Assembly: GCA_044229975.1 (NCBI GenBank)
Contig: JBGARZ010000004.1
Location: forward strand, 192,001-256,000
Source: Polyangiales bacterium
GTDB lineage: Bacteria; Myxococcota_A; Polyangia; Polyangiales; Ga0077539
DNA length: 64,000 nt
Direction of reading: 5' to 3'
Made by a program: the position numbers and the translations under genes. Below, piece by piece: positions 3,113 through 63,918 of the stretch (position 1 is its first letter; the number at the start of each line of letters is the position of its first letter). The notes beneath the pieces are model-generated. The model saw only the letters and a list, made by a program, of their open reading frames with translations. It ran no database searches and was not told the DNA's origin.

Positions 3113-5494
3113 TCACGCACGCGGTCGGCCCCGGCGCACCGCGGGCGTCCCGATCGAACCACGCACCGTGGTCCCCCGCACGAGCCCCGCGACGCTGTAC
3201 CCGAAGCCGGCGCTCCCGGGCGTCACGACCATCACCGTCGGCGCGACCGCGCTCATGCCATCGGCCCACAGGCTCGCGTCGCCGAAGTACACCTTCACCG
3301 TGCTGTTGGTGTCGCCGAGGTGGGGGATCGCCAGCGCGAAGTCACCCATGCCGTCGTCGTCGTAGTCGCCGACGCCCGCGATGGTCGAGGCCCACGTCGT
3401 CTCGCCGCTCGGCGCGAAGAGCGTGCGCTGCTCGGTCAGCACCGGCGCGGTCGACGACGTCGCGAGCGGCGCGCGCAGCACGATCATGCAGGCGCCGACG
3501 TATGCGAGGCCCACCTCGTCGCCGCCGTCGCCGTTGATGTCGCCCAGGTTGGCCACGCGCCGCTCGGCGCTGAAGGCCCCCGGCGTGCACGGCGACGGGT
3601 CCGTGAAGACGCTCGACGCCGCGATGCCCGTGACGCCGCCGTAGTACACGCGCAGGCCCGCGTCGCCCGCCACCACCACGTCGCTGAAGCCGTCGCCGTT
3701 GATGTCGCCGCCGCCCGTGACCGACGCGCCGAAGCCCACCGTCGACGAGAGCCCGCTCGCGCCGAGCGTCACCCTCACGAACGACGCCACGCCCGACACG
3801 TCCGACGCGAGGTAGAGGTCGGCGTCGCCGCGTGACCCGTGGCCGACGACGAAGTCGCCGCGGCCGTCGCCGTTGAAGTCGCCCGCCGTCGAGAGGCTCA
3901 TCGCCGGGTCGGGGCCCGCCACGGTGGGCGCGAGCTCGACGAAGCGGCCCTCGCGCGCACCGGTATACCCGCGGTAGACGCGCAGCACGCCCGTCGCGGG
4001 GAAGCCCACCACGAACTCCCCGATGCCGTCGCGGTTGGAGTCCATCACCGGCGCCATGCGGAGCGCGTCGGTGGTCGCGGCACCCGCCGTCGAGGGGACG
4101 AGCTCGGGGGTGCGGTCGCTGGAGGTGGTGGTCCCGAGGACGACGTAGACGCCGCTCGATCCGCCGCGGTCACCCGGAAAGCCGGTCGCGAGGCCGAAGT
4201 CTTCGAGGCCGTCGGCGTTGATGTCGCCGAGGCGCGCGGCGCGGCCGAAGTCGAGGCTGGGCTCGGTCACGAACACGAACTGTTCTGCGACGTGAGAGAA
4301 CGGCCGGCCGAGGATGATCGTCGCGCCGTGGGAGGCGCCCGAGCGCGCGTTGACCACGAGGAGGTCGGCGCCCCCGTTGCCGTCGAAGTCTCCCGCCTGG
4401 CCGATGGCGCGGGAGAGCGGCGCGCCCGTGATCGGTCGCATCGGCTGGTTGGCGCGCAGGCGGAAGGGCCACGCCACCGAGCGGATGGTGGCGGGCGCGA
4501 GGACGAGCTTCATGCGCCACCAGAGCGTGTGCCGCGAGCCGATGGGTCCGCCCGAGGCGACGAGCTCGTCGGCGTTGACGGAGGAGAGACGCCAGGTGGT
4601 GACGCCGCCGACGGCCGCGGACGTGGTCACCGGGAGGGTCACCGTCTGCGCCGCGACGAACTCAGAGCTCGGGCTGATCTCGATGAAGGCCGAGACGCCC
4701 GCGGGCACGTCCGTCCCGTGCACCTCGAAGGCGAGGAGCCGCGAGTTGGTGGTCGCTCCCGCCGTGGGCAGGATGAGCTGCGGGGTCGGGAGCGTTCCGG
4801 CGTCGGCGGAGGCATCGACGACATCGGGGACATCGAGCGGCGAAGAGGCATCGACCACGTCGGGCACATCGGGTACGTCGGGCACGTCGAGCGGGGTCGA
4901 GGCATCGACCACATCGGGCACATCGGGCACATCGACCACGTCGGGCGCGTCGAGGCGCGCGACCTCGGACAGCCCGGAGGCGTCGACGGTGGTCAGCCCG
5001 GTGATGTCGGGGAGCGACACGAGCTGGTCGTTGCGACACGTGCCTTCGATGCACGTCTCGTTGGGCGCGCACGTTTCGCTGACACCGAGGCAGGCGCGCT
5101 CCAGGAACATCGTCAGCAGCAGCTTGCGATCGGGGACGAAGCCCACGAGCGCGGAACGTTCGATGTGCCGGTTGGTGCCGACGGTGTCGGCCGTCACGAT
5201 GACCCGCACGCGGCGGCTGGCGTCGCCGTCGACGGGGACGAGCCCGAAGCTGATGGGCAGCGCGTAGGACGCCGGCCGGGGGTTGGCCGACAGGCGGAAG
5301 CTGCGGTCGTCGTAGACGTTCTGGCTCGACGGGTCGTACATCTGGACGTGGATGTTGTTGAGCTCGCCGGGGACCAGCAGGTCGCTGTCGATGAGCACCA
5401 GGAGCTGCGTGGCGGGCACCTCGCGGCAGCTCGCCGTCGAGCCCACGACGCACGCCAGCAGCAACGCCCACAGCTTCGAGCTTCGCGTCACCAT
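3113..5494 (-). CDS. Lipoprotein with Asp/Pro-rich linker and FG-GAP (integrin-alpha/VCBS-like) repeat beta-propeller
   Basis: Start MVTRSSKLW overlaps the upstream stop. Lipobox TASC, DVPDV linker repeats, repeated GDFDGNG/GDINGDG/GDFNGDG motifs. Confidence 0.85.
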   Translation of the reverse strand: MVTRSSKLWALLLACVVGSTASCREVPATQLLVLIDSDLLVPGELNNIHVQMYDPSSQNVYDDRSFRLSANPRPASYALPISFGLVPVDGDASRRVRVIVTADTVGTNRHIERSALVGFVPDRKLLLTMFLERACLGVSETCAPNETCIEGTCRNDQLVSLPDITGLTTVDASGLSEVARLDAPDVVDVPDVPDVVDASTPLDVPDVPDVPDVVDASSPLDVPDVVDASADAGTLPTPQLILPTAGATTNSRLLAFEVHGTDVPAGVSAFIEISPSSEFVAAQTVTLPVTTSAAVGGVTTWRLSSVNADELVASGGPIGSRHTLWWRMKLVLAPATIRSVAWPFRLRANQPMRPITGAPLSRAIGQAGDFDGNGGADLLVVNARSGASHGATIILGRPFSHVAEQFVFVTEPSLDFGRAARLGDINADGLEDFGLATGFPGDRGGSSGVYVVLGTTTSSDRTPELVPSTAGAATTDALRMAPVMDSNRDGIGEFVVGFPATGVLRVYRGYTGAREGRFVELAPTVAGPDPAMSLSTAGDFNGDGRGDFVVGHGSRGDADLYLASDVSGVASFVRVTLGASGLSSTVGFGASVTGGGDINGDGFSDVVVAGDAGLRVYYGGVTGIAASSVFTDPSPCTPGAFSAERRVANLGDINGDGGDEVGLAYVGACMIVLRAPLATSSTAPVLTEQRTLFAPSGETTWASTIAGVGDYDDDGMGDFALAIPHLGDTNSTVKVYFGDASLWADGMSAVAPTVMVVTPGSAGFGYSVAGLVRGTTVRGSIGTPAVRRGRPRA

Positions 5495-54563: not shown

Positions 54564-54871
54564 TGTTCGCAACGGGTCAGGCCGGGCGCGCGGCCCTCGG
54601 GCTGAGGGGCATCGTGGTGGTGTGGAGCCTCGGGTCGTGCGCGACCGCCAGCGGGAGCTGGGAGACGTTGCCTTCGGCCGAGCAGCGGGCGTTTCAGCAC
54701 TGCCAGAACGCCATCACCCTGCGCGAGTGCCCGCCCGTCCCTGGCGCCGCCGACGAGCAGGAGTGCGTCAGCGCCGCGCGGGCGGTGTACGCCGGCATGA
54801 GCGAACCCGCGGAGCGTCGGCGCTGGCTGGCGGCTCATGGGTGTTCGCGGACGAGCGCGACGTCGCCGTAG
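54563..54871 (+). CDS. Small hypothetical lipoprotein
   Basis: TGATG coupling to polA; lipobox LGSC; Cys pairs. Confidence 0.5.
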   Translation: MFATGQAGRAALGLRGIVVVWSLGSCATASGSWETLPSAEQRAFQHCQNAITLRECPPVPGAADEQECVSAARAVYAGMSEPAERRRWLAAHGCSRTSATSP

Positions 54872-54926
54872 GAGCGCGCAACCGGGCTGCACAAGCCGTG
54901 CAGGTGTGCAGCGGCGTTGCGCAGGT

Positions 54927-56711
54927 TCAGGGCGACAGGTAGCGGAGGTAGACGTGGGCACCCGAGACGCCCGTCACCAGGTCGCCGCTCGCGTTGGACT
55001 GGAACACCACGTAGCTCCCGTCGGGGGTGATGGCGCTGGTGTCGGAGATGCCACCGGAGATGGTTCCGTCGAGGCGGCTCGACACGGTGAAGAGGGCGCG
55101 GGTAGCGAGGTCGAAGGTGAGCAGGTCGCGGCCGCTTCCGGGGTCGCCGACGACGAGGTTGGTGGCCTCGCTGTAGAAGAGAACGCGCCCGGTGGCGGTC
55201 ACCCCCGTGGGCATGGACACCCCGTTGGGCTCGACGCCGTCGGCGCGCAGGCTGACGCGCGTGGTGGTGTGCGTCGTGCGGTCGTGCACGTAGACGTCCG
55301 AGCGCCCGTTGGTGTCGCCCGCGACGAGGTTGGTCGCGTCGGACTGGAAGGCCACGTAGCGGCCGTCGCGGGAGATCATCGGGCGCCGCGATGATCCGTT
55401 GGCCTGCGTTCCGTCGGTGGCCACGCTCACGCGCTCGACGGTGTTGCTGGCGCGGTCGCGCACCATGACGTCGTAGAAGTTCGCGGTGTCGCCGGTCACG
55501 AGGTTGGACGCGCCCGACTCGAAGGCCACGTAACGGCCGTCCGTGCTCATGCACGGAAACGCGCTCTCCCCGTTGCCCGGCTCGCCGGTCGCGGTCTGGC
55601 TGATGAGCTCGTAGGTGCGCGCGGCGCGGTCGTAGAGCACGGCCTGGCGGGCCGTCGCGCCATGAAGAAACGCGGCGCCGTTGGTGCGGAAGGCCACGAG
55701 GCGCCCGTCCGCGGTGACCCGCGCGTTGTCGGCGAACTCGCCCGCCGCGAGGCCCGCGCTGACGTGCACGAGCGTGTGGGTGGCGCGCTCGAAGGCGAAG
55801 ACGTCGTTGTTGGCGTTGACGTCACCCGCCACGAGGTTGGTCGACGTGGAGACGAAGACCACCACGCGGCCGTCGCCAGAGATGTCGGCGTTTTGCGCGT
55901 CGCCGTCGCCCTCGGTGGTCTGGTTGGCGGCGAGGCTGGCGCGCTCCCAGGTGTTGAGCACGCGGTCGCGCACGTAGACGTCGTAGCGGGCGTTGGTGTC
56001 GCCCGTGACGAAGTTGGTCGCGCGCGAGTAGACGGCGACGAAGCGCTGGTCGTCGCTGATGGTGGGGCCGTAGGTGACGCCGTTGGCGAGGGGGTCGACG
56101 GACTCGATGGCGCCACAGGTCGAGCCGAGGCAGGCGGTTCCGGTGGCGCAGGCGGCGCCACACGCGCCGCAGTGGAGGCGGTCGTGGGCGGTGTCGACGC
56201 AGCGGCCGGAGCACACCGTCTCCCAGGCGGCGCAGGCGCAGGCGCCGGCGGTGCAGGTGCCGCCGGTGGGGCAGGCGTTGCCGCAGCCGCCGCAGTGGCG
56301 GGCGTCGGTGAGTGGGTCGACGCAGGCGCCGTCGCAGGTGAGGCGGGGCGCGACGCACGGCGGAACATCGACGGCCGGGGGCACATCGACGGCCGGGGGA
56401 ACATCGACGGGCGAGCCCGCGTCGATGGCGACGACATCGGACGCGACATCGGTGACGACGGGGACATCGGTGGCGACGGGGACATCGGTGGCGACGGGGA
56501 CATCGGTGGCGACGGGGACGTCGGTGGCGATGGGGACATCGCGAGTGGGAGCGTCGACGGTGGCGGTGTCGACGGGAGATCCCGCGTCGGTGGCAGGGAC
56601 ATCAGGCTGCGCGTTGGTATCGGGAGCGGAGGCGTCGAGGGCGGCGGTGGTGCCACCACCACAGCCGATGAGAACGAAGGCGAACGACAGCGAGGAAGGG
56701 GAAAACTTCAT
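54927..56711 (-). CDS. Lipoprotein: DVPVAT linker, Cys-rich repeats, TolB-like (PD40) beta-propeller
   Basis: Lipobox LIGC; 18-bp DVPVAT repeats; HCGGCG units; repeated ISxDGRYVAFxSxATNLVxGDTN. Confidence 0.88.
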   Translation of the reverse strand: MKFSPSSLSFAFVLIGCGGGTTAALDASAPDTNAQPDVPATDAGSPVDTATVDAPTRDVPIATDVPVATDVPVATDVPVATDVPVVTDVASDVVAIDAGSPVDVPPAVDVPPAVDVPPCVAPRLTCDGACVDPLTDARHCGGCGNACPTGGTCTAGACACAAWETVCSGRCVDTAHDRLHCGACGAACATGTACLGSTCGAIESVDPLANGVTYGPTISDDQRFVAVYSRATNFVTGDTNARYDVYVRDRVLNTWERASLAANQTTEGDGDAQNADISGDGRVVVFVSTSTNLVAGDVNANNDVFAFERATHTLVHVSAGLAAGEFADNARVTADGRLVAFRTNGAAFLHGATARQAVLYDRAARTYELISQTATGEPGNGESAFPCMSTDGRYVAFESGASNLVTGDTANFYDVMVRDRASNTVERVSVATDGTQANGSSRRPMISRDGRYVAFQSDATNLVAGDTNGRSDVYVHDRTTHTTTRVSLRADGVEPNGVSMPTGVTATGRVLFYSEATNLVVGDPGSGRDLLTFDLATRALFTVSSRLDGTISGGISDTSAITPDGSYVVFQSNASGDLVTGVSGAHVYLRYLSP

Positions 56712-56918
56712 GGATGGGCCTCCGCCGGGATGAGGGCGTGCGGGGCCTCTCGCGCCGTGGAAAGCGCGCTGCGCTGAGAGGACCCATCGACTCCATGAGC
56801 AATCGACGGGCCACGGTTGGTGCGCGATCAGTCGTTGGCGAAGACGTCGTCGACCGAGCGAACGGAGAGCACCCGCGCCGCCCACAGTCGGCGGTGCCAC
56901 GCCGCGGCGTGGGACCCA

Positions 56919-57572
56919 TCACGCCCGCACCCTCAGCGCCAGCAGCTCCGTGCGCCCCAACAACGGGAACCACCGCGTCGCCGCCACGCTCACCGACCAC
57001 GCCGCGAGCTCGCCCGCGTAGCGCTCCTGGTCGATCCTCGGGACGATCAGGTACATCGCCCCGCCCTCTGCGAGGTGCCCCGGCGCCTCCGCGAGACACC
57101 GGCGCACCACGCTCCCGCCGCACCACGCGCGCTCGTCGTCGGAGCCTGCCTCGTGGTCGTGGAAGGGCGGGTTGAAGACAATCGCGTCGAACCGCTGCCC
57201 CGCAAGCTCCGCGAAGAGATCGGAGTGCAGCAGCCGCACCCGCACGCCCATCCGCTCCGCCGCCGTCGCGACCGCGTCGAGCGGAACGTGCGGCAGGTCG
57301 GTGGCCGTCACCTCGAACCCGCGTCGCGCCGCGGCCAGCGCCCAGAAGCCGGCGCCCGTCCCCAGTTCGAGCACCGTCGCGTTCGCCGGCAGCAGGTCGA
57401 GCGCGGCCTCCTGCAACGACCCGACGCCCACACCCATGAACGGCGCCGGGTGATGCACTCCGGGCGCGACGATCAGCGACACGCCGCGGTGCTCGACCGG
57501 GCCCGACCGCGCGAGCGCCCGCTGCGCCAGCACCAACGCCCGCGTGCGCAAGCTGTATAGAATGCCGTTCAA
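56919..57572 (-). CDS. Class I SAM-dependent methyltransferase (HemK/PrmC-like, NPPF motif)
   Basis: TTG start overlaps the upstream stop, with GGAGG RBS; VLELGTGAG, SDLF, FNPPF. Confidence 0.82.
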   Translation of the reverse strand: MNGILYSLRTRALVLAQRALARSGPVEHRGVSLIVAPGVHHPAPFMGVGVGSLQEAALDLLPANATVLELGTGAGFWALAAARRGFEVTATDLPHVPLDAVATAAERMGVRVRLLHSDLFAELAGQRFDAIVFNPPFHDHEAGSDDERAWCGGSVVRRCLAEAPGHLAEGGAMYLIVPRIDQERYAGELAAWSVSVAATRWFPLLGRTELLALRVRA

Positions 57573-58897
57573 GCCTCCTCCAGCGCGGCGACGAAGCGGC
57601 GCATCAGCGCGTGGGCGCCGTCGTCGGAGAGCCGCGGCACCTCGTACGCCAATGCAGCGGTGACCGACCCCGGCAGCGCGGTCACGGTGAGCCCCACGCC
57701 CGGCTGTCGCGGCAACCCGCTCAGGCAGTACACGCGCCGCACGCGCACGCTCGCCGGGAGACGGAGGCCCTCCGGCACGCGGATGTGGCTGAACAAGAAC
57801 GAGTACATGAACGACGACCTCCGCTCGTCGAGCCACCGGAAGAACGCCCGCATCGCGAACGGCGGCAGCGTCGCTCCCAACAGCGCGAGGGCTACCGGGG
57901 TGGCGAGGGCGAGCTCGGGGTCGCGACCGGCCCGCAGGCGATCGGCGAGCCGTCGCACGAGGTCGTCGCCATCCACCTCCGCCGCGGTGAAGTCGGCCTC
58001 GATGACGCCGATGTGGTTCTGGAGCGAACGCCCGACGCCAAACTCGCCGCGCAGGTCGACCGGGACCAGCGCCCGGAAGGTCTCGTCGCCCATCCCCCGC
58101 TCGCGCCGCCACGCCGCCGCCGCGCGCAGAAACGCCGCCAGCAGCAGGTCGTTGCGCGTCGCCCCGAGTCGCGTGGCCCGCTCGCGGAGCCGCGCCCAGA
58201 CCGTCGGGTCGACGTCGACCACCGCGCAGCGCAGCGACTCGCCGCGGGCCTCGACGCGCTCCAGCAGCGCCGCCCGCCGCTCGCCGAAGCGGCGCGCCCC
58301 GGCGACGTTGGCGCGCAGCAGCGACGCGGTGAAGCGCAGCCCGCGACGTGCGAGCAGCCGACGGAGGCTGGCGCCGCTCGGAGCGACGGGATCGGGGACG
58401 ACCGCAGGCTCGCCGTCGAGGAGGCAGTAGCGGGTGAGGAGCGCGTCGAAGAGCGCGAGCGCGCCGACGCCGTCGGTGACGCTGTGGTGCAGCGTGAACA
58501 CGAGCTGGTACCCGCCGCCCGGCCGCGGCGCGTGCAGCAGGCGGACGGGCGCCGTCGTCGCGAGGTCGAGGGTGCGCCCGAACCAGTCGGCGTCGTTGAG
58601 GTCGATGGGATCGTCGCTCCAGGTGAGGAGGCCGTCGGCGCCGCTCCACGAGGTCGCCGGGGCGGCGAAGCGCGTGAGGCCGACGGGTGACTCCTGGACG
58701 TAGCTGCGCAGCGTCGGCACCGACGCGACGAGTCCGGCGAGGGCGCCGTCGAGGATCGCTCGGTCGAAGGGAGCGTCCGTGTCGACGACGTGGTGCGTGG
58801 TCATCGGGCGACCCGGGTAGGTCTGCGCGACGATGGCGCGGTCCATCCAGTTCATCTCCAGCGCGTGCGGTGCGGGCGCGCGGCGGGGGAGGTTCAT
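57569..58897 (-). CDS. Stand-alone condensation-domain / CoA-dependent acyltransferase
   Basis: HHSVTDG (HHxxxDG), ATRNDLLLAA, VPVDLR. Confidence 0.82.
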   Translation of the reverse strand: MNLPRRAPAPHALEMNWMDRAIVAQTYPGRPMTTHHVVDTDAPFDRAILDGALAGLVASVPTLRSYVQESPVGLTRFAAPATSWSGADGLLTWSDDPIDLNDADWFGRTLDLATTAPVRLLHAPRPGGGYQLVFTLHHSVTDGVGALALFDALLTRYCLLDGEPAVVPDPVAPSGASLRRLLARRGLRFTASLLRANVAGARRFGERRAALLERVEARGESLRCAVVDVDPTVWARLRERATRLGATRNDLLLAAFLRAAAAWRRERGMGDETFRALVPVDLRGEFGVGRSLQNHIGVIEADFTAAEVDGDDLVRRLADRLRAGRDPELALATPVALALLGATLPPFAMRAFFRWLDERRSSFMYSFLFSHIRVPEGLRLPASVRVRRVYCLSGLPRQPGVGLTVTALPGSVTAALAYEVPRLSDDGAHALMRRFVAALEEA

Positions 58898-59028
58898 GCG
58901 GTGCGACCGTACACCTCGACGCGGGCGCCGGCCCCAACGCATCCGGCGAGTACGACGTGCTCCCGCTCGGCGCGACCGCGGTCCTCGAGCGGCTCACCCG
59001 CTGAGCGCGGAGGGGCGTGGGTTGGCGC

Positions 59029-59057
59029 TTGACGCGCCATGCTCGATGCGACACAAA
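59029..59057 (+). promoter_or_regulatory. Possible sigma70-type promoter for the ncRNA-abi unit
   Basis: TTGACG at 59029-59034; weak -10 (CACAAA) 17 bp downstream. Confidence 0.35.
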
Positions 59058-59121
59058 CCCATCCAACACGCCCGCCTCGCCTCTGCCGAAAGGCACGCGC
59101 ACTAGGCGGGCTTTTTCATTT
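59058..59121 (+). ncRNA. Candidate AbiF-associated structured RNA (RNA antitoxin or attenuating leader)
   Basis: Outer stem GCCCGCCT 59070-77 with AGGCGGGC 59104-11; inner TGCC-GAAA-GGCA hairpin 59084-95; T-tract 59112-16; directly 5' of the abi ATG. Confidence 0.6.
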
Positions 59122-59139
59122 CTTCGGCGTGGGTCTGCG

Positions 59140-60045
59140 ATGGGGACGCGCTACGACAAACCGGCCCTGACGATCGACCAGCAGCTGGCGTTGTTGGTGT
59201 CTCGCGGCATGACGGTGGCCGACCCTCAGCGCGCTCAGCGCGTGCTCTCCAACATCAGTTACTACCGACTCAGCGGCTACTGGTATCCGCTCCGCAAGGT
59301 CGACGCCGCCGGGCAGCGAGCTGACGACTTCCGGCTGGGCAGCAGCTTCGAGTTGGCCGTCGAACTGTACGAGTTCGATCGTCAGCTTCGCCTCGAGTTG
59401 CTCGACGGAGTCGAGCGGGTGGAGGTCGCGCTCCGCACCAGCGTGACCTACCGCTTCGGGCTAGCGGCGGGAGCTTTCGGCCACACCGACCCGACGAAGT
59501 TTCGCGCCGGTTTCGAGCACGCAGACTGGCTCCGACGGGTCGAGGAGGAGATCGAGCGTTCGCAGGAGACCTTCGTCGAGCACTACCGGCGGCGATACGA
59601 CGGCCACCCCCGACTGCCGCTGTGGATGGCGACGGAGGTGATGTCCTTCGGCTCCCTCTCGCGCCTCTTCAAGAACGTCGCGGCAGACGTCCAGCGCGAG
59701 ATCGCGAAGCCCTTCGCCGTCCACCACAGCGTGCTCGCGAGCTGGCTGCACGTGATCACCGTCGTCCGCAACGTCTGCGCCCACCACGCCCGGCTCTGGA
59801 ACCGCGAACTCGGCGTCCGGCCCAAGTTGCCCCAACACGACCCGAGCTGGAGGGTTCCGGCGTCGGACCGACTCTTCGCGGTGCTGCTCATCCTGCGCCA
59901 TATGCTCCGTGCTCTGGGCGAAGGCAGCGGCTGGGCCACGAGGGTCGAGCAACTCGTGAATCCGATCGCACGGAAGGGGGCCAACGGCACCTCCATGGGT
60001 CTTCCGCCACGCTGGAACGATCACCCCATCTGGGCCGGTCGCTGA
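59140..60045 (+). CDS. Abi family (Abi_2; AbiD/AbiF-like) HEPN ribonuclease
   Basis: KPALTIDQQLALLVSRGM, ISYYRLSGY, LYEFDRQLR, ERVEVALR, PLWMATEVMSFG, HEPN RNVCAH (RxxxxH), RLWNR. Confidence 0.92.
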   Translation: MGTRYDKPALTIDQQLALLVSRGMTVADPQRAQRVLSNISYYRLSGYWYPLRKVDAAGQRADDFRLGSSFELAVELYEFDRQLRLELLDGVERVEVALRTSVTYRFGLAAGAFGHTDPTKFRAGFEHADWLRRVEEEIERSQETFVEHYRRRYDGHPRLPLWMATEVMSFGSLSRLFKNVAADVQREIAKPFAVHHSVLASWLHVITVVRNVCAHHARLWNRELGVRPKLPQHDPSWRVPASDRLFAVLLILRHMLRALGEGSGWATRVEQLVNPIARKGANGTSMGLPPRWNDHPIWAGR

Positions 60046-60082
60046 CCCCACCGCGCAGACCAACGGCGTCGGCGAGAGCCCG

Positions 60083-61357
60083 CTACGGCAGCGACGCCAG
60101 GATCTCGCGCTCGATGGCGGCGTAGTCCACCGTCACGTCGAGCCGCGCGAGCAGCGAGTAGAACCCGAACTGCAACCGGTTCATGAAGGTCATGTGCGGG
60201 GGCATCCCGAAGAACTCCGCCTCGGGCAGCGTGCGGCTCTCCTTGGCGACGACCTTCATGCCCTCGACGAGGCTCGCTGCGTACGGCCGGGTCATGTTCC
60301 AGGGCGACTCGAAGAGGGGCTTGAACGCCACCCGGATGTACTCCCAGCAGAGCACCTCCATGCCGCCCGGCTTCGCGCCCAGCATCCGCCCGAGCGCCGC
60401 GCGAAACTCCTTCTCGTCGCGCGCGATGGCCGCCCGGTGCATGGCCCGCGCGTTGTCGCGGTTGTCGTCGGGGATGCGCTGCACGCAGCCGAAATCGAGC
60501 ACTCCCACCGCGCCGTCGGGCAGGAAGATGTAGTTGCCCGGGTGCGGGTCGGCGTTGAAGCGACCTCCCGCCAGGATGGCCGTGAACACGTAGCGCCAGA
60601 GCGTCTTCGCCCACGCCTCGCGCTGCGCGAGCGGCGCCGCCACCGCGTCGTCGAAGCTCCGCCCCTCGATGAACTCCATGGTCAGCACGCGCCCCGTCGA
60701 GCGGTCGTCGATGACCGCGGGCACGGTGACCTTCGGGTCGTCGCGAAACATCTCCGCGAAGTGCCGCTGGTTGTCGGCCTCGTGCTGGTAGTCGAGCTCC
60801 TCGCGGAAGCGCTCCTTGATGACCGCGAACACTGCCTTCGGGTCGTGCCGCCCGAGGCCCATGCTCGACGCCATGCTGGTGAGAATCCCCCCGTTGGAGA
60901 GGTCGCTCTCCACCGCCGCCGCCACGTTGGGGTGTTGCACCTTCACCGCCACGGCGCGTCCGTCGTGGAGCCGCGCGCGGTGCACCTGCCCGATGGAGGC
61001 GCTCGCGATGGGGGTGTCGCTCCACTCGGCGAAGAGTGTTTCGGGCGCGGCGCCGAGCTCGGCGACGATGAGCGCGCGCACCTCCGCGGGCGACGACTGC
61101 GGTGTGGCGGCGCGCAGCCCCTTCATGGCGAGCTCGTAGTGCTCGCGCTGGCCTTCGGGGATCACCCCGTCGACGTAGCTGGCCATCTGACCGACCTTGG
61201 CCGCGAGGCCGCGGAGCGTCCCGAGCACCTCCGCGGTGTGCATGGCCGCGGCGCGGGCGTCCTTGTCGAGGAGCATCCCGGCGCCGGCGCGGAGCCCGGT
61301 CGAGGCGAGGCGGGCGAAGCGTCCGAGGCGTCCGGTGGGGAGGTCGCGTTCATCCAT
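60083..61357 (-). CDS. ABC1/UbiB (AarF) atypical kinase family protein
   Basis: AKVGQ, ASASIGQVHRA, VAVKVQHP, EELDY, NADPHPGN, LDFG. Confidence 0.93.
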   Translation of the reverse strand: MDERDLPTGRLGRFARLASTGLRAGAGMLLDKDARAAAMHTAEVLGTLRGLAAKVGQMASYVDGVIPEGQREHYELAMKGLRAATPQSSPAEVRALIVAELGAAPETLFAEWSDTPIASASIGQVHRARLHDGRAVAVKVQHPNVAAAVESDLSNGGILTSMASSMGLGRHDPKAVFAVIKERFREELDYQHEADNQRHFAEMFRDDPKVTVPAVIDDRSTGRVLTMEFIEGRSFDDAVAAPLAQREAWAKTLWRYVFTAILAGGRFNADPHPGNYIFLPDGAVGVLDFGCVQRIPDDNRDNARAMHRAAIARDEKEFRAALGRMLGAKPGGMEVLCWEYIRVAFKPLFESPWNMTRPYAASLVEGMKVVAKESRTLPEAEFFGMPPHMTFMNRLQFGFYSLLARLDVTVDYAAIEREILASLP

Positions 61358-61478
61358 TGGGTGGCGCGGACCAATGGGGGTAGAAACGGCACCGGCGTCA
61401 AGCGCCGGGAATCCCGCAACGACGCCAACCCCAGGAACCGGCGACCGCGAGGGCGCCGGACCAGCGGGCGCGCCTCCC

Positions 61479-62048
61479 CTACGGCGTCGCGGCCGTATTC
61501 GCGAGGACGACGTCGATCACCGGAGCGTAGGCCCGCCACGCCAGGGAGAGTTCTTCGATCAGCTTGTCCCGATACTCGTCAAACGAGTCGGGAACTTCCG
61601 GCCCGGGCAGCACGTAGCCGAGAGCCGCATACCATGAGGTGGTCCGGTGGTTCCGCGCCAACCGGGCTGTCTTCATGGCATCTGAGCTACGCAGCGCCAA
61701 TCCCAGGGGATCAGCGTTTCGACAGACCACCCCGACGTAGGGAGGCTCTCCCGGGCCGAGGGTCACCGACCAGCGGTGCCATTGAAGTGCGACGCACACG
61801 CGAGGCTGCCCGGAGTCGTGGAGAGGCCACGTCGGCCGAACGAGCTGGTAGGTCGGCCACTCCTCGTCGGGGTCGATGCGAGCGTTGAGCTGGACGCCCA
61901 GCGCCTGCGTCGTCTCCGCGATCATCGGGCGTAGGCCGTCCAGCCACTCGTCGAGCGCCGCGGTCGCTTCCTTCTTCAATGCCGCCCACTCCTCGATGCG
62001 TTCCCGGTGGCGGAGGTAGAAGCGGACCCGCTCGTCATGGATGGTCAT
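61479..62048 (-). CDS. Hypothetical protein coupled to the PD-(D/E)XK nuclease gene
   Basis: TGATG overlap with the upstream nuclease gene; atypical codon usage. Confidence 0.7.
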   Translation of the reverse strand: MTIHDERVRFYLRHRERIEEWAALKKEATAALDEWLDGLRPMIAETTQALGVQLNARIDPDEEWPTYQLVRPTWPLHDSGQPRVCVALQWHRWSVTLGPGEPPYVGVVCRNADPLGLALRSSDAMKTARLARNHRTTSWYAALGYVLPGPEVPDSFDEYRDKLIEELSLAWRAYAPVIDVVLANTAATP

Positions 62049-62788
62049 CAGAACTCCCGGTCGAGGGTTCGAAGGTAGGACTCAACGACGCGCCGACCCT
62101 CCGTGATCCCGCTGCGTGGCTGGGGCGCATCGACCGCTCGCAGCGAACGAGAGAGCACGTCGTGGAGCTGTCGGTAGCTCATGGATCGGAACGCCTTCGC
62201 CGCCTCGCCGGTTGCGCTGACCGGGGGACGACCCTCGGGCGTGAGGAAGACGAAGCGGGCGCCCGGGTCTGACTTGAACGCTTCGAAGTACGCATCGCAT
62301 TGACGGTGTCCCTCCGGTGCGTCGACCTTGTTCTCGACGACGAGGGTGAGCTCGTAGCCCGCGCGCACCACCACGTCGATGCGGCAGTCCCCTCGCTGCT
62401 CTTCGCGGCGTGTCCGCGCGTGAGGCAGCGCGAGGACGAGCGCGTCTGACAAACCCTCGGGGTACGCCTCGCGGAGAAACTCGCGGAGCCCGACGGGGCC
62501 GAGGCCGTGACGACCGCAGGGATCGAGCAGCCACGCAATCATCGTCGAGTGGGGCAACTCGTCCCTGCGCAAGCCGAGGACGCCGAAGGTGTCGTCGGGG
62601 CCGTGAAGCCACTGCCCGCGGGCCCGCAGGGCATCCTCTTCGGCCGCGATGACGTTGTAGCCATGACGCCATTCCGAGAGGATGTCGGCCGAGCGCGCCT
62701 CGATGACGAGCCACTGCGCCAACAGACTCTCGAACTCCTCGTCGGAGCTTCGCAGGTGCGACGCCGTAATCCGCCCGGACGAGGACAT
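62048..62788 (-). CDS. PD-(D/E)XK nuclease family protein (PDDEXK_4-like)
   Basis: ELPHSTMIAWLLDP..HGLG, RIDVV, VVENKV, Q..AY, FLTPEG. Confidence 0.85.
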   Translation of the reverse strand: MSSSGRITASHLRSSDEEFESLLAQWLVIEARSADILSEWRHGYNVIAAEEDALRARGQWLHGPDDTFGVLGLRRDELPHSTMIAWLLDPCGRHGLGPVGLREFLREAYPEGLSDALVLALPHARTRREEQRGDCRIDVVVRAGYELTLVVENKVDAPEGHRQCDAYFEAFKSDPGARFVFLTPEGRPPVSATGEAAKAFRSMSYRQLHDVLSRSLRAVDAPQPRSGITEGRRVVESYLRTLDREF

Positions 62789-62940
62789 CTCGATGCGGCT
62801 ATCACCGGGCAGGCTTTTGCTGCAACGGAAACGTGCGCTCCGCGGATCGGTCGCCCAGCCTCCATCGGGACACCCCATGCCGGGCGGCACCCGAGCACGC
62901 AGCGACGACAGCATCGCGACGCTCGCGGTACGGTCGCGCG

Positions 62941-63918
62941 ATGGGCTACATCCCGCCGGACGCGAAGTGGTACCTGGCCGACGTGGTGGAGGTGATACGG
63001 GTGGGCGACGACCCTCGGCAGGTGGTGCACGTCAACCTGCACCTCGTGCGCGCCGACTCCCCGAGCGAGGCGTACGAAAAGGCGCTCGCGATCGGGCGGC
63101 AGGGTGAGCAGCGCTACCTCAACCCCGCTGGACAGGAAGTGCACACGGAGTTCGTCGGGCTGCGCGGGCTCAACGTCATCCACGAGCCGTTGGAGGATGG
63201 CGCCGAGCTGATCTACGACGAGCGCATCGTGTCGTCGCGCGCCGAGGCGGAGGCGCTCACCGTGAAGCGCTCCGAGCTCGCGGTCTTCGCGCCCATCGAG
63301 CCGGGAGACCATCCCGACTACGCCTGTGCGGAAGTCCTCGCGGAGGTCTACCAGCGCGTGCAGTCGATGCGCGACGCGATGCGTCTCACCACCCCGCGGC
63401 TCGTGCTCGAACCGCTCGTCCCCGACCACGCCGACGCCCTCTTCGCGGGGCTCTCCGACCCGCTTCTCTACACGTACATCCCGGGCAACCCGCCGGTCTC
63501 GGTCGAGACGCTGCGGGCGCGATACACCCGCCTGGAGTCGCGCTGGTCGCCCGACGGTCTGGAGCGCTGGCTCAACTGGGCGGTGCGCCTGTCCGATGGT
63601 GCGTACGTCGGGCTCGCCGAGGCCACGGTGCGCGCCGATCAGCGGGCGAGCGTCGCGTACTTCGTGTTCGCGGAGTTCATGCGACGGGGCTACGGCGCCG
63701 AGGCCACGGGCGCGGTGGTGCGCTACCTCGTCGACGAGCTCAAGGTGCGCGGCGTCGAGGCACAGATCGACACCCGCAACGCGGCCTCGCAGCGTCTCGT
63801 CGAGCGCGTGGGCTTCGTCCGGGTGCGCATCGAGCGCGACGCCGACACCTTCAAGGGATCATCCAGCGACGAGTACATCTACGAGTGGCCGATGGACGCG
63901 CTCACGGCGTCGCGATGA
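62941..63918 (+). CDS. DUF4288-like domain fused to a RimJ/RimL-type GNAT N-acetyltransferase
   Basis: N-terminal WYLAD...LVRADSPSEAYEKA...FVGLRGL...LEDGAEL; C-terminal TPRLVLEPL, RRGYGAEA, NAASQRLVERVGF. Confidence 0.78.
   Translation: MGYIPPDAKWYLADVVEVIRVGDDPRQVVHVNLHLVRADSPSEAYEKALAIGRQGEQRYLNPAGQEVHTEFVGLRGLNVIHEPLEDGAELIYDERIVSSRAEAEALTVKRSELAVFAPIEPGDHPDYACAEVLAEVYQRVQSMRDAMRLTTPRLVLEPLVPDHADALFAGLSDPLLYTYIPGNPPVSVETLRARYTRLESRWSPDGLERWLNWAVRLSDGAYVGLAEATVRADQRASVAYFVFAEFMRRGYGAEATGAVVRYLVDELKVRGVEAQIDTRNAASQRLVERVGFVRVRIERDADTFKGSSSDEYIYEWPMDALTASR

Follow-up and report, generated by a model that had tools for sequence, protein, structure and literature searches.

The window analyzed here, a 64,000-nucleotide stretch of a Polyangiales genome, contains a compact folded RNA element and an Abi_2 gene, both on the plus strand and in the same order as in known abiF modules. 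The features of this locus are as follows.

59029-59034, + strand: -35 box TTGACG of the predicted promoter, 42 nt ahead of the outer stem
59051-59069, + strand: AC-rich run
59052-59057, + strand: predicted -10 hexamer CACAAA, non-consensus, with a 17-nt spacer to the -35 box
59065-59116, + strand: predicted abiF-type antitoxin RNA, also a predicted terminator, about 52 nt with inferred ends
59070-59077 paired with 59104-59111, + strand: outer stem P1, 8 bp
59078-59080 paired with 59097-59099, + strand: inner helix P2, 3 bp
59084-59087 paired with 59092-59095, + strand: inserted variable hairpin P3, 4 bp, absent from the Rfam consensus
59088-59091, + strand: GAAA tetraloop of P3
59100-59103, + strand: 3' bulge
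59112-59116, + strand: T tract (T5) directly 3' of P1, predicted intrinsic terminator
59140-60045, + strand: abiF gene, 301 aa, with its ATG at 59140 and its stop at 60045
59767-59784, + strand: RNVCAH motif, residues 210 to 215, within the abiF open reading frame

The stems, the GAAA hairpin, the T tract, the TTGACG box, the Abi_2 reading frame, and the RNVCAH motif all lie where the original prediction had placed them. It had also stated that no protein antitoxin adjoins the gene, and none was found among the immediate neighbors of abiF, because one of these is a condensation/acyltransferase-like gene in divergent orientation and the other an ABC1 kinase gene in convergent orientation. The leader is spanned by Logan contigs of three sequencing runs (X1 to X3), of which X2 and X3 belong to one study and X1 may be the source sample. 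Two differences were listed for X2 and X3, at 59023 and 59059, and both fall outside the -35 box, the -10 position, and the RNA fold. In all, four DNA runs were compared as contigs, and no RNA run was listed for the locus.

Judged by its domain matches, the 301-aa product is a member of the AbiD/AbiF HEPN family and is predicted to cut RNA. Abi_2 was its only Pfam match (PF07751, E = 1.6e-59, 201.8 bits against a cut-off of 25.6), PADLOC assigned it to AbiD (E = 9.7e-75), a match that it has in common with the lactococcal AbiD, AbiD1, and AbiF proteins, and the gene is the single Abi_2 match in the genome. The sole significant match in a PDB search was chain A of 8VZ6 (E = 1.2e-47, residues 5 to 298), which is PbAbiF, the protein of the PbAbiF-AbiFr pair from a Prevotellaceae bacterium. 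The two proteins are of the same family and nearly the same length (301 versus 300 aa), and in both cases an RNA element lies upstream. An intact R-phi-x3-H motif occupies the catalytic position of the Abi_2 protein: R210 and H215 align onto the catalytic R210 and H215 of PbAbiF, and both residues are invariant in 37 of 37 aligned proteins, picked from among the 120 matches listed of 3,567. PbAbiF carrying both R210A and H215A has been reported to be inactive (10.1101/2025.04.15.648962). A full-length relative with 89% identity, P0002, exists among the matches listed.

The sequence from 59058 to 59120 folded with a free energy of -26.8 kcal/mol (z = -4.56), and none of 200 shuffled sequences was as stable. 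Pair probabilities were 0.97 to 1.0 for the outer stem and the hairpin and 0.71 for the inner helix. In a scan of a 71-nt segment, all 37 positions of the Rfam abiF model (RF03085, positions 1 to 37) aligned to 59071-59111, so the comparison with Rfam abiF that the original prediction had proposed was borne out as a full-length alignment and fell short as a score, which reached 19.2 bits and not the gathering cut-off of 37. Other weak matches in the same scan (STnc310, CRISPR-DR28, and others) were far under their cut-offs and generic terminator-like, and they were set aside. No abiF match was returned by an Rfam scan of 56000-63000 or by an RF03085 scan of the genome. The RNA shares with RF03085 the outer stem, the 3-bp inner helix, the CUCU loop start, the 3' bulge, and the position 5' of an Abi_2 gene; in contrast to that model, covariation supports one extra pair at the top of P1. 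The low score is explained by the GAAA hairpin inserted in the apical loop, which has 12 nt compared with 7 in RF03085. Since it stays below the cut-off, we term this RNA a loop-extended homologue and not a formal Rfam hit. Models built from the leaders of related genes recognized it readily. Model R2, whose 98 rows include leaders that pass the Rfam cut-off and exclude this locus and L002 (although R1 was used to align them), found one site in the window, namely, this RNA (50.9 bits, E = 2.3e-11). Model R1 found one site in the 10-Mb genome; in one set of 100 loci it matched 93, many of which had served to train it, and a second set of 100 yielded 77 matches. By comparison, the RF03085 cut-off was passed by 2 of 20 loci in one set and by 10 of 20 hand-picked loci in another, those that passed having mostly short loops.

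We fetched 240 related loci; 33 of 243 loci were left out of the survey of leaders on account of a short upstream region, a duplicate leader, or no usable match. A pattern finder detected the same architecture in 149 of the 210 distinct Abi_2 leaders, this locus included, compared with 8 of 470 shuffled sequences and 5 of 216 controls taken from downstream. Dropping five weak matches left 144 leaders, and dropping four more rows with a shifted register left 140; L002 and L108 were re-parsed by hand. It should be noted that the finder required pairing of P1 and that the rows of alignment A2 were chosen with it. Independent support therefore comes from the enrichment over controls and from two pairs that the finder did not require. 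The first pair of P2 forms in 136 of 144 leaders (C-G in 74, A-U in 37, G-U in 17, U-A in 6, and G-C in 2), and the innermost pair of the 8-bp P1 stem is Watson-Crick in 90 of 140, with 53 expected from shuffles. In A2, a sequence-only MAFFT alignment of 83 leaders, 86.9% of the cells pair, compared with 73.2% after shuffling and 32 to 46% with slid partners, and two-sided changes occur at 11 of 14 pairs. A model-fitted alignment, which leans to structure, yielded 91% pairing cells and changes on both sides at 13 of 14 pairs; these covariation counts rest on related sequences. The original prediction expected the stem to covary among homologue leaders, and this is what was observed, with the fold present in 144 of 210 distinct loci and compensatory changes within it. 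Unpaired bases are conserved as well, the loop starting with CUCU in 98 of 144 leaders and the first bulge base being C in 114 of 140, which is more than a bare terminator would need.

The finder missed 61 of the 210 leaders, some of which are variants recovered by R1 and others of which have no such RNA; the abiF RNA is therefore not attached to every Abi_2 gene. No abiF-type leader was detected for the Abi_2 genes in the groups of L150, L151, L160, L146, L185, and L188, some of these genes lying directly behind another gene. Other loci carry the element more than once or in a different place. In L030 (47-302), three complete tandem units, 99 nt apart and each consisting of promoter-like boxes, an abiF-type RNA, and a T tract, precede one Abi_2 gene, and two RNA copies are present in L005 (2711 and 2899), in L111 (2182 and 2323), and, weakly, in L121. 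In L107, an abiF-type RNA on the minus strand (3861-3932) is convergent with the Abi_2 gene and follows directly after its stop codon; no abiF motif was found upstream of that gene.

The position of the promoter relative to the RNA is nearly fixed among the homologues. Measured from P1, the 144 leaders most often start TTG[AC] at -41 (53 leaders), -42 (25), -40 (13), or -43 (12) and TAnnnT at -18 (65) or -19 (21), and an A at -6 is conserved in 90%. This spacing, together with the A at -6, places the -10 hexamer at 59052-59057 and the start near 59065, so that the RNA probably runs from 59065 to 59116 with a length of about 52 nt. The start at 59058 that the original prediction proposed is, by the same spacing, likely about 7 nt too early. 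Its AC-rich run was correctly located, although most of the run would be -10 and discriminator DNA of the promoter and not a leader within the RNA. A simple consensus scan called neither a promoter nor a terminator at the locus, because the -10 is not TATAAT-like and the enclosed loop exceeds the limit of the scan, and a genome-wide TTGAC profile gave no signal. Of the tRNA upstream regions in this genome, 21 contain TTGAC[AG]; T occupies hexamer position 6 in 3 of these and position 1 in 14. The tRNA promoter-like sites combine a strong TTGACA/G with a -10 that reads TA[GC]A.., the final T being mostly missing. A weak-looking -10 is normal for this genome, and this likeness weakens a reading of the promoter as dead. 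No clear Shine-Dalgarno sequence lies ahead of the abiF ATG and the ribosome-binding site is weak, so that with its non-consensus -10 this copy could be weakly expressed.

At the 3' side, P1 leads straight into a T tract, the 8 nt that follow the stem including at least 5 T in 140 of 144 leaders, and the RNA therefore likely doubles as a terminator. This arrangement would also suit an element that acts in cis only, as a terminator or protein-bound attenuator that holds abiF expression low without any antitoxin action in trans. A described case bears on both sides of this question: Clostridioides difficile AbiF is toxic and is co-transcribed with RCd22, an RNA of two RF03085 motifs, which was shown to repress it in cis by termination but also to neutralize it in trans by RNA binding and to co-purify with it (10.1101/2025.04.15.648962). 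The conserved unpaired bases and the covarying inner helix count against an action confined to cis, and the convergent downstream copy in L107 and the three tandem units in L030 fit a product that is needed as RNA. We consider the cis-only explanation unlikely and favor an RNA that acts as antitoxin.

The apical loop is the variable part of the element, ranging from 11 to 38 nt across the 144 leaders. Loops of at least 14 nt occur in 105 of them, in many phyla, and 84 of these 105 fold into a hairpin (736 of 2,100 for shuffled loops), capped mostly by GCAA, GAAA, or UUCG. The very hairpin inserted at this locus recurs in L098, L046 (labelled Phycisphaerae), and L029 (labelled Planctomycetaceae). 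The score below the Rfam cut-off and the variable loop length could be taken to indicate a distinct, lineage-specific RNA class, as the original prediction had suggested for myxobacteria, or a hairpin that serves as a guide and aims the RNase. Both ideas are extremely unlikely. The RNA core corresponds to RF03085 position for position, leaders that pass the cut-off grade into failing ones through loop length alone, and leaders nearly identical to this one, in some cases with the same hairpin, come from records labelled Planctomycetes, Lentisphaerae, and others, so that the same insert is shared by unrelated taxa. A guide role lacks support in that the long inserts pair with themselves and that no 12-nt match of this insert was found elsewhere in the genome. 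The insert reads as a structural add-on to an abiF RNA, not as a guide. We met no description of it in the passages of the AbiF literature surveyed, although it may have been published; the main text of Weinberg 2017 (PMC5737381) does not mention abiF. Loop-extended, tandem, and orphan forms may already be on record in the supplement of that paper and in Zilberzwige-Tal et al. (2025, Cell). A broader proposal would be that the Rfam model captures only a small part of the abiF RNA family. In this view, a variable apical hairpin is carried by most members near this clade, and the family extends to tandem promoter-RNA-terminator arrays, a convergent downstream gene, and orphans; the variable loop could determine which toxin pairs with which antitoxin, or it could be the site at which guide-like sequence was first accommodated during the evolution of the Cas13 crRNA. 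This proposal is speculative, and we regard it as improbable.

In a survey of 141 genomes of the order, the RNA was found in 6 and the gene in 5, both being adjacent and intact in 4. Three loci depart from the complete arrangement or its usual sequence. In L266 (994-1466, genome G145), the RNA precedes an Abi_2 gene that lacks about residues 78 to 208 of the query. L269 (1501-1555, G147) is an orphan abiF-type RNA with promoter-like boxes, and no Abi_2 match was present in the locus or in the genome searched. L270 (1308-1362, G126) has a variant leader, identified by eye and unscored, in which the near-invariant GC/GC of the inner helix reads GG/CC. The internally deleted gene in L266, a sister locus within the order, as well as the non-consensus -10 and the weak ribosome-binding site at our locus, would be in keeping with a silent or decaying passenger. 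Such a state is very unlikely for the copy described here, as its reading frame and catalytic motif are intact, its -10 resembles the tRNA promoters of the same genome, and P0002 is full length.

Among 61 relatives, the protein occurs in 2, this genome included, and in none of 8 of the same genus. The distance from polA to the ABC1 gene is about 30, 580, and 800 bp in three genomes of the genus, compared with 5.5 kb here, and the abiF module therefore lies at the end of an accessory block. This block (54564-60082) comprises a Stig1/PD40-repeat protein gene, a methyltransferase and condensation-like pair that is found elsewhere in relatives, and abiF. The GC3 of abiF is 0.86, compared with 0.92 to 0.96 in five neighboring genes, which suggests horizontal acquisition. 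Two adjacent reading frames on the minus strand at 61479-62914 of the window are possibly accessory genes too; their translations, one of 189 aa and one of 234 aa that covers part of a 288-aa frame, had no Pfam or PADLOC match. In L246 (990-1240, G002), an extended inverted repeat, about 100 bp in length, was seen by eye between polA and ABC1, and a related stretch is present in L250.

In type III systems of the ToxIN/AbiQ type, a ToxN-type toxin is preceded by RNA repeats in tandem. This type was ruled out by the single RNA copy in the genome and by Abi_2 as the only Pfam match. A CRISPR-Cas13 system, with two HEPN domains per chain and a repeat-spacer array, was likewise ruled out, as the 301 aa contain one Abi_2 stretch and the RNA is present once. 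As in the C. difficile AbiF_Cd-RCd22 system, one promoter is predicted here to serve both a short RNA and a readthrough mRNA, and the R-x4-H motif is shared (RNQCAH there, RNVCAH here). In contrast, RCd22 combines two abiF motifs with a terminator distinct from them, whereas the present RNA has one motif that likely doubles as terminator, and AbiF_Cd-RCd22 sits in a prophage lysis module, whereas this locus is in a non-phage accessory block. With respect to PbAbiF-AbiFr (PDB 8VZ6; Zilberzwige-Tal et al. 2025 Cell), a possible difference is the 4-bp apical hairpin with a GAAA loop in the RNA described here. Antiphage activity has been shown for lactococcal AbiD, AbiD1, and AbiF, where it depends on an upstream segment with promoter and terminator (PMC11381338, PMC13064643); at our locus such activity is putative. 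The structure of PbAbiF with its RNA, the lactococcal segment, and the link to Cas13 are covered in PMC13064643, PMC12737573, PMC12948488, PMC11381338, and PMC12165695.

Sequence and tools establish the protein family, the catalytic motif, the RNA fold, its covariation, the fixed promoter spacing, and the tight linkage of RNA and gene. On these grounds, the Abi_2/AbiF gene behind a conserved abiF-type element very probably works as an AbiF RNA-antitoxin (type III) module. One promoter would give mostly the RNA of about 52 nt, stopping at the T tract, and rare readthrough past this tract would give the toxin; the RNA is predicted to inhibit the RNase by binding to it. The short and long transcripts, direct RNA-protein binding, a homodimer, and growth arrest by the free protein would follow by analogy with PbAbiF and C. 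difficile AbiF. Release of the RNase during phage infection, leading to abortive infection, may be the last step and is the weakest of the scheme. The original prediction of a HEPN RNase held by an RNA antitoxin, with termination and readthrough, fits every sequence test that we applied and coincides with the RNA-antitoxin model already published for AbiF (10.1101/2025.04.15.648962; PMC13064643; PMC12737573).

The locus is a further copy of the known AbiF anti-phage module, in which the sole departure of the RNA from its catalogued form is an additional hairpin of a common kind, and it reveals no new mechanism. The gene is uncommon in this lineage, being present in 5 of 141 genomes of the order, and the locus contributes one more intact module. 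For annotation, the gain is that the Rfam abiF model misses loop-extended members, which a broader model finds. The natural apical loops, with their 11 to 38 nt, are ready variants for testing which regions of the RNA are required by the RNase.
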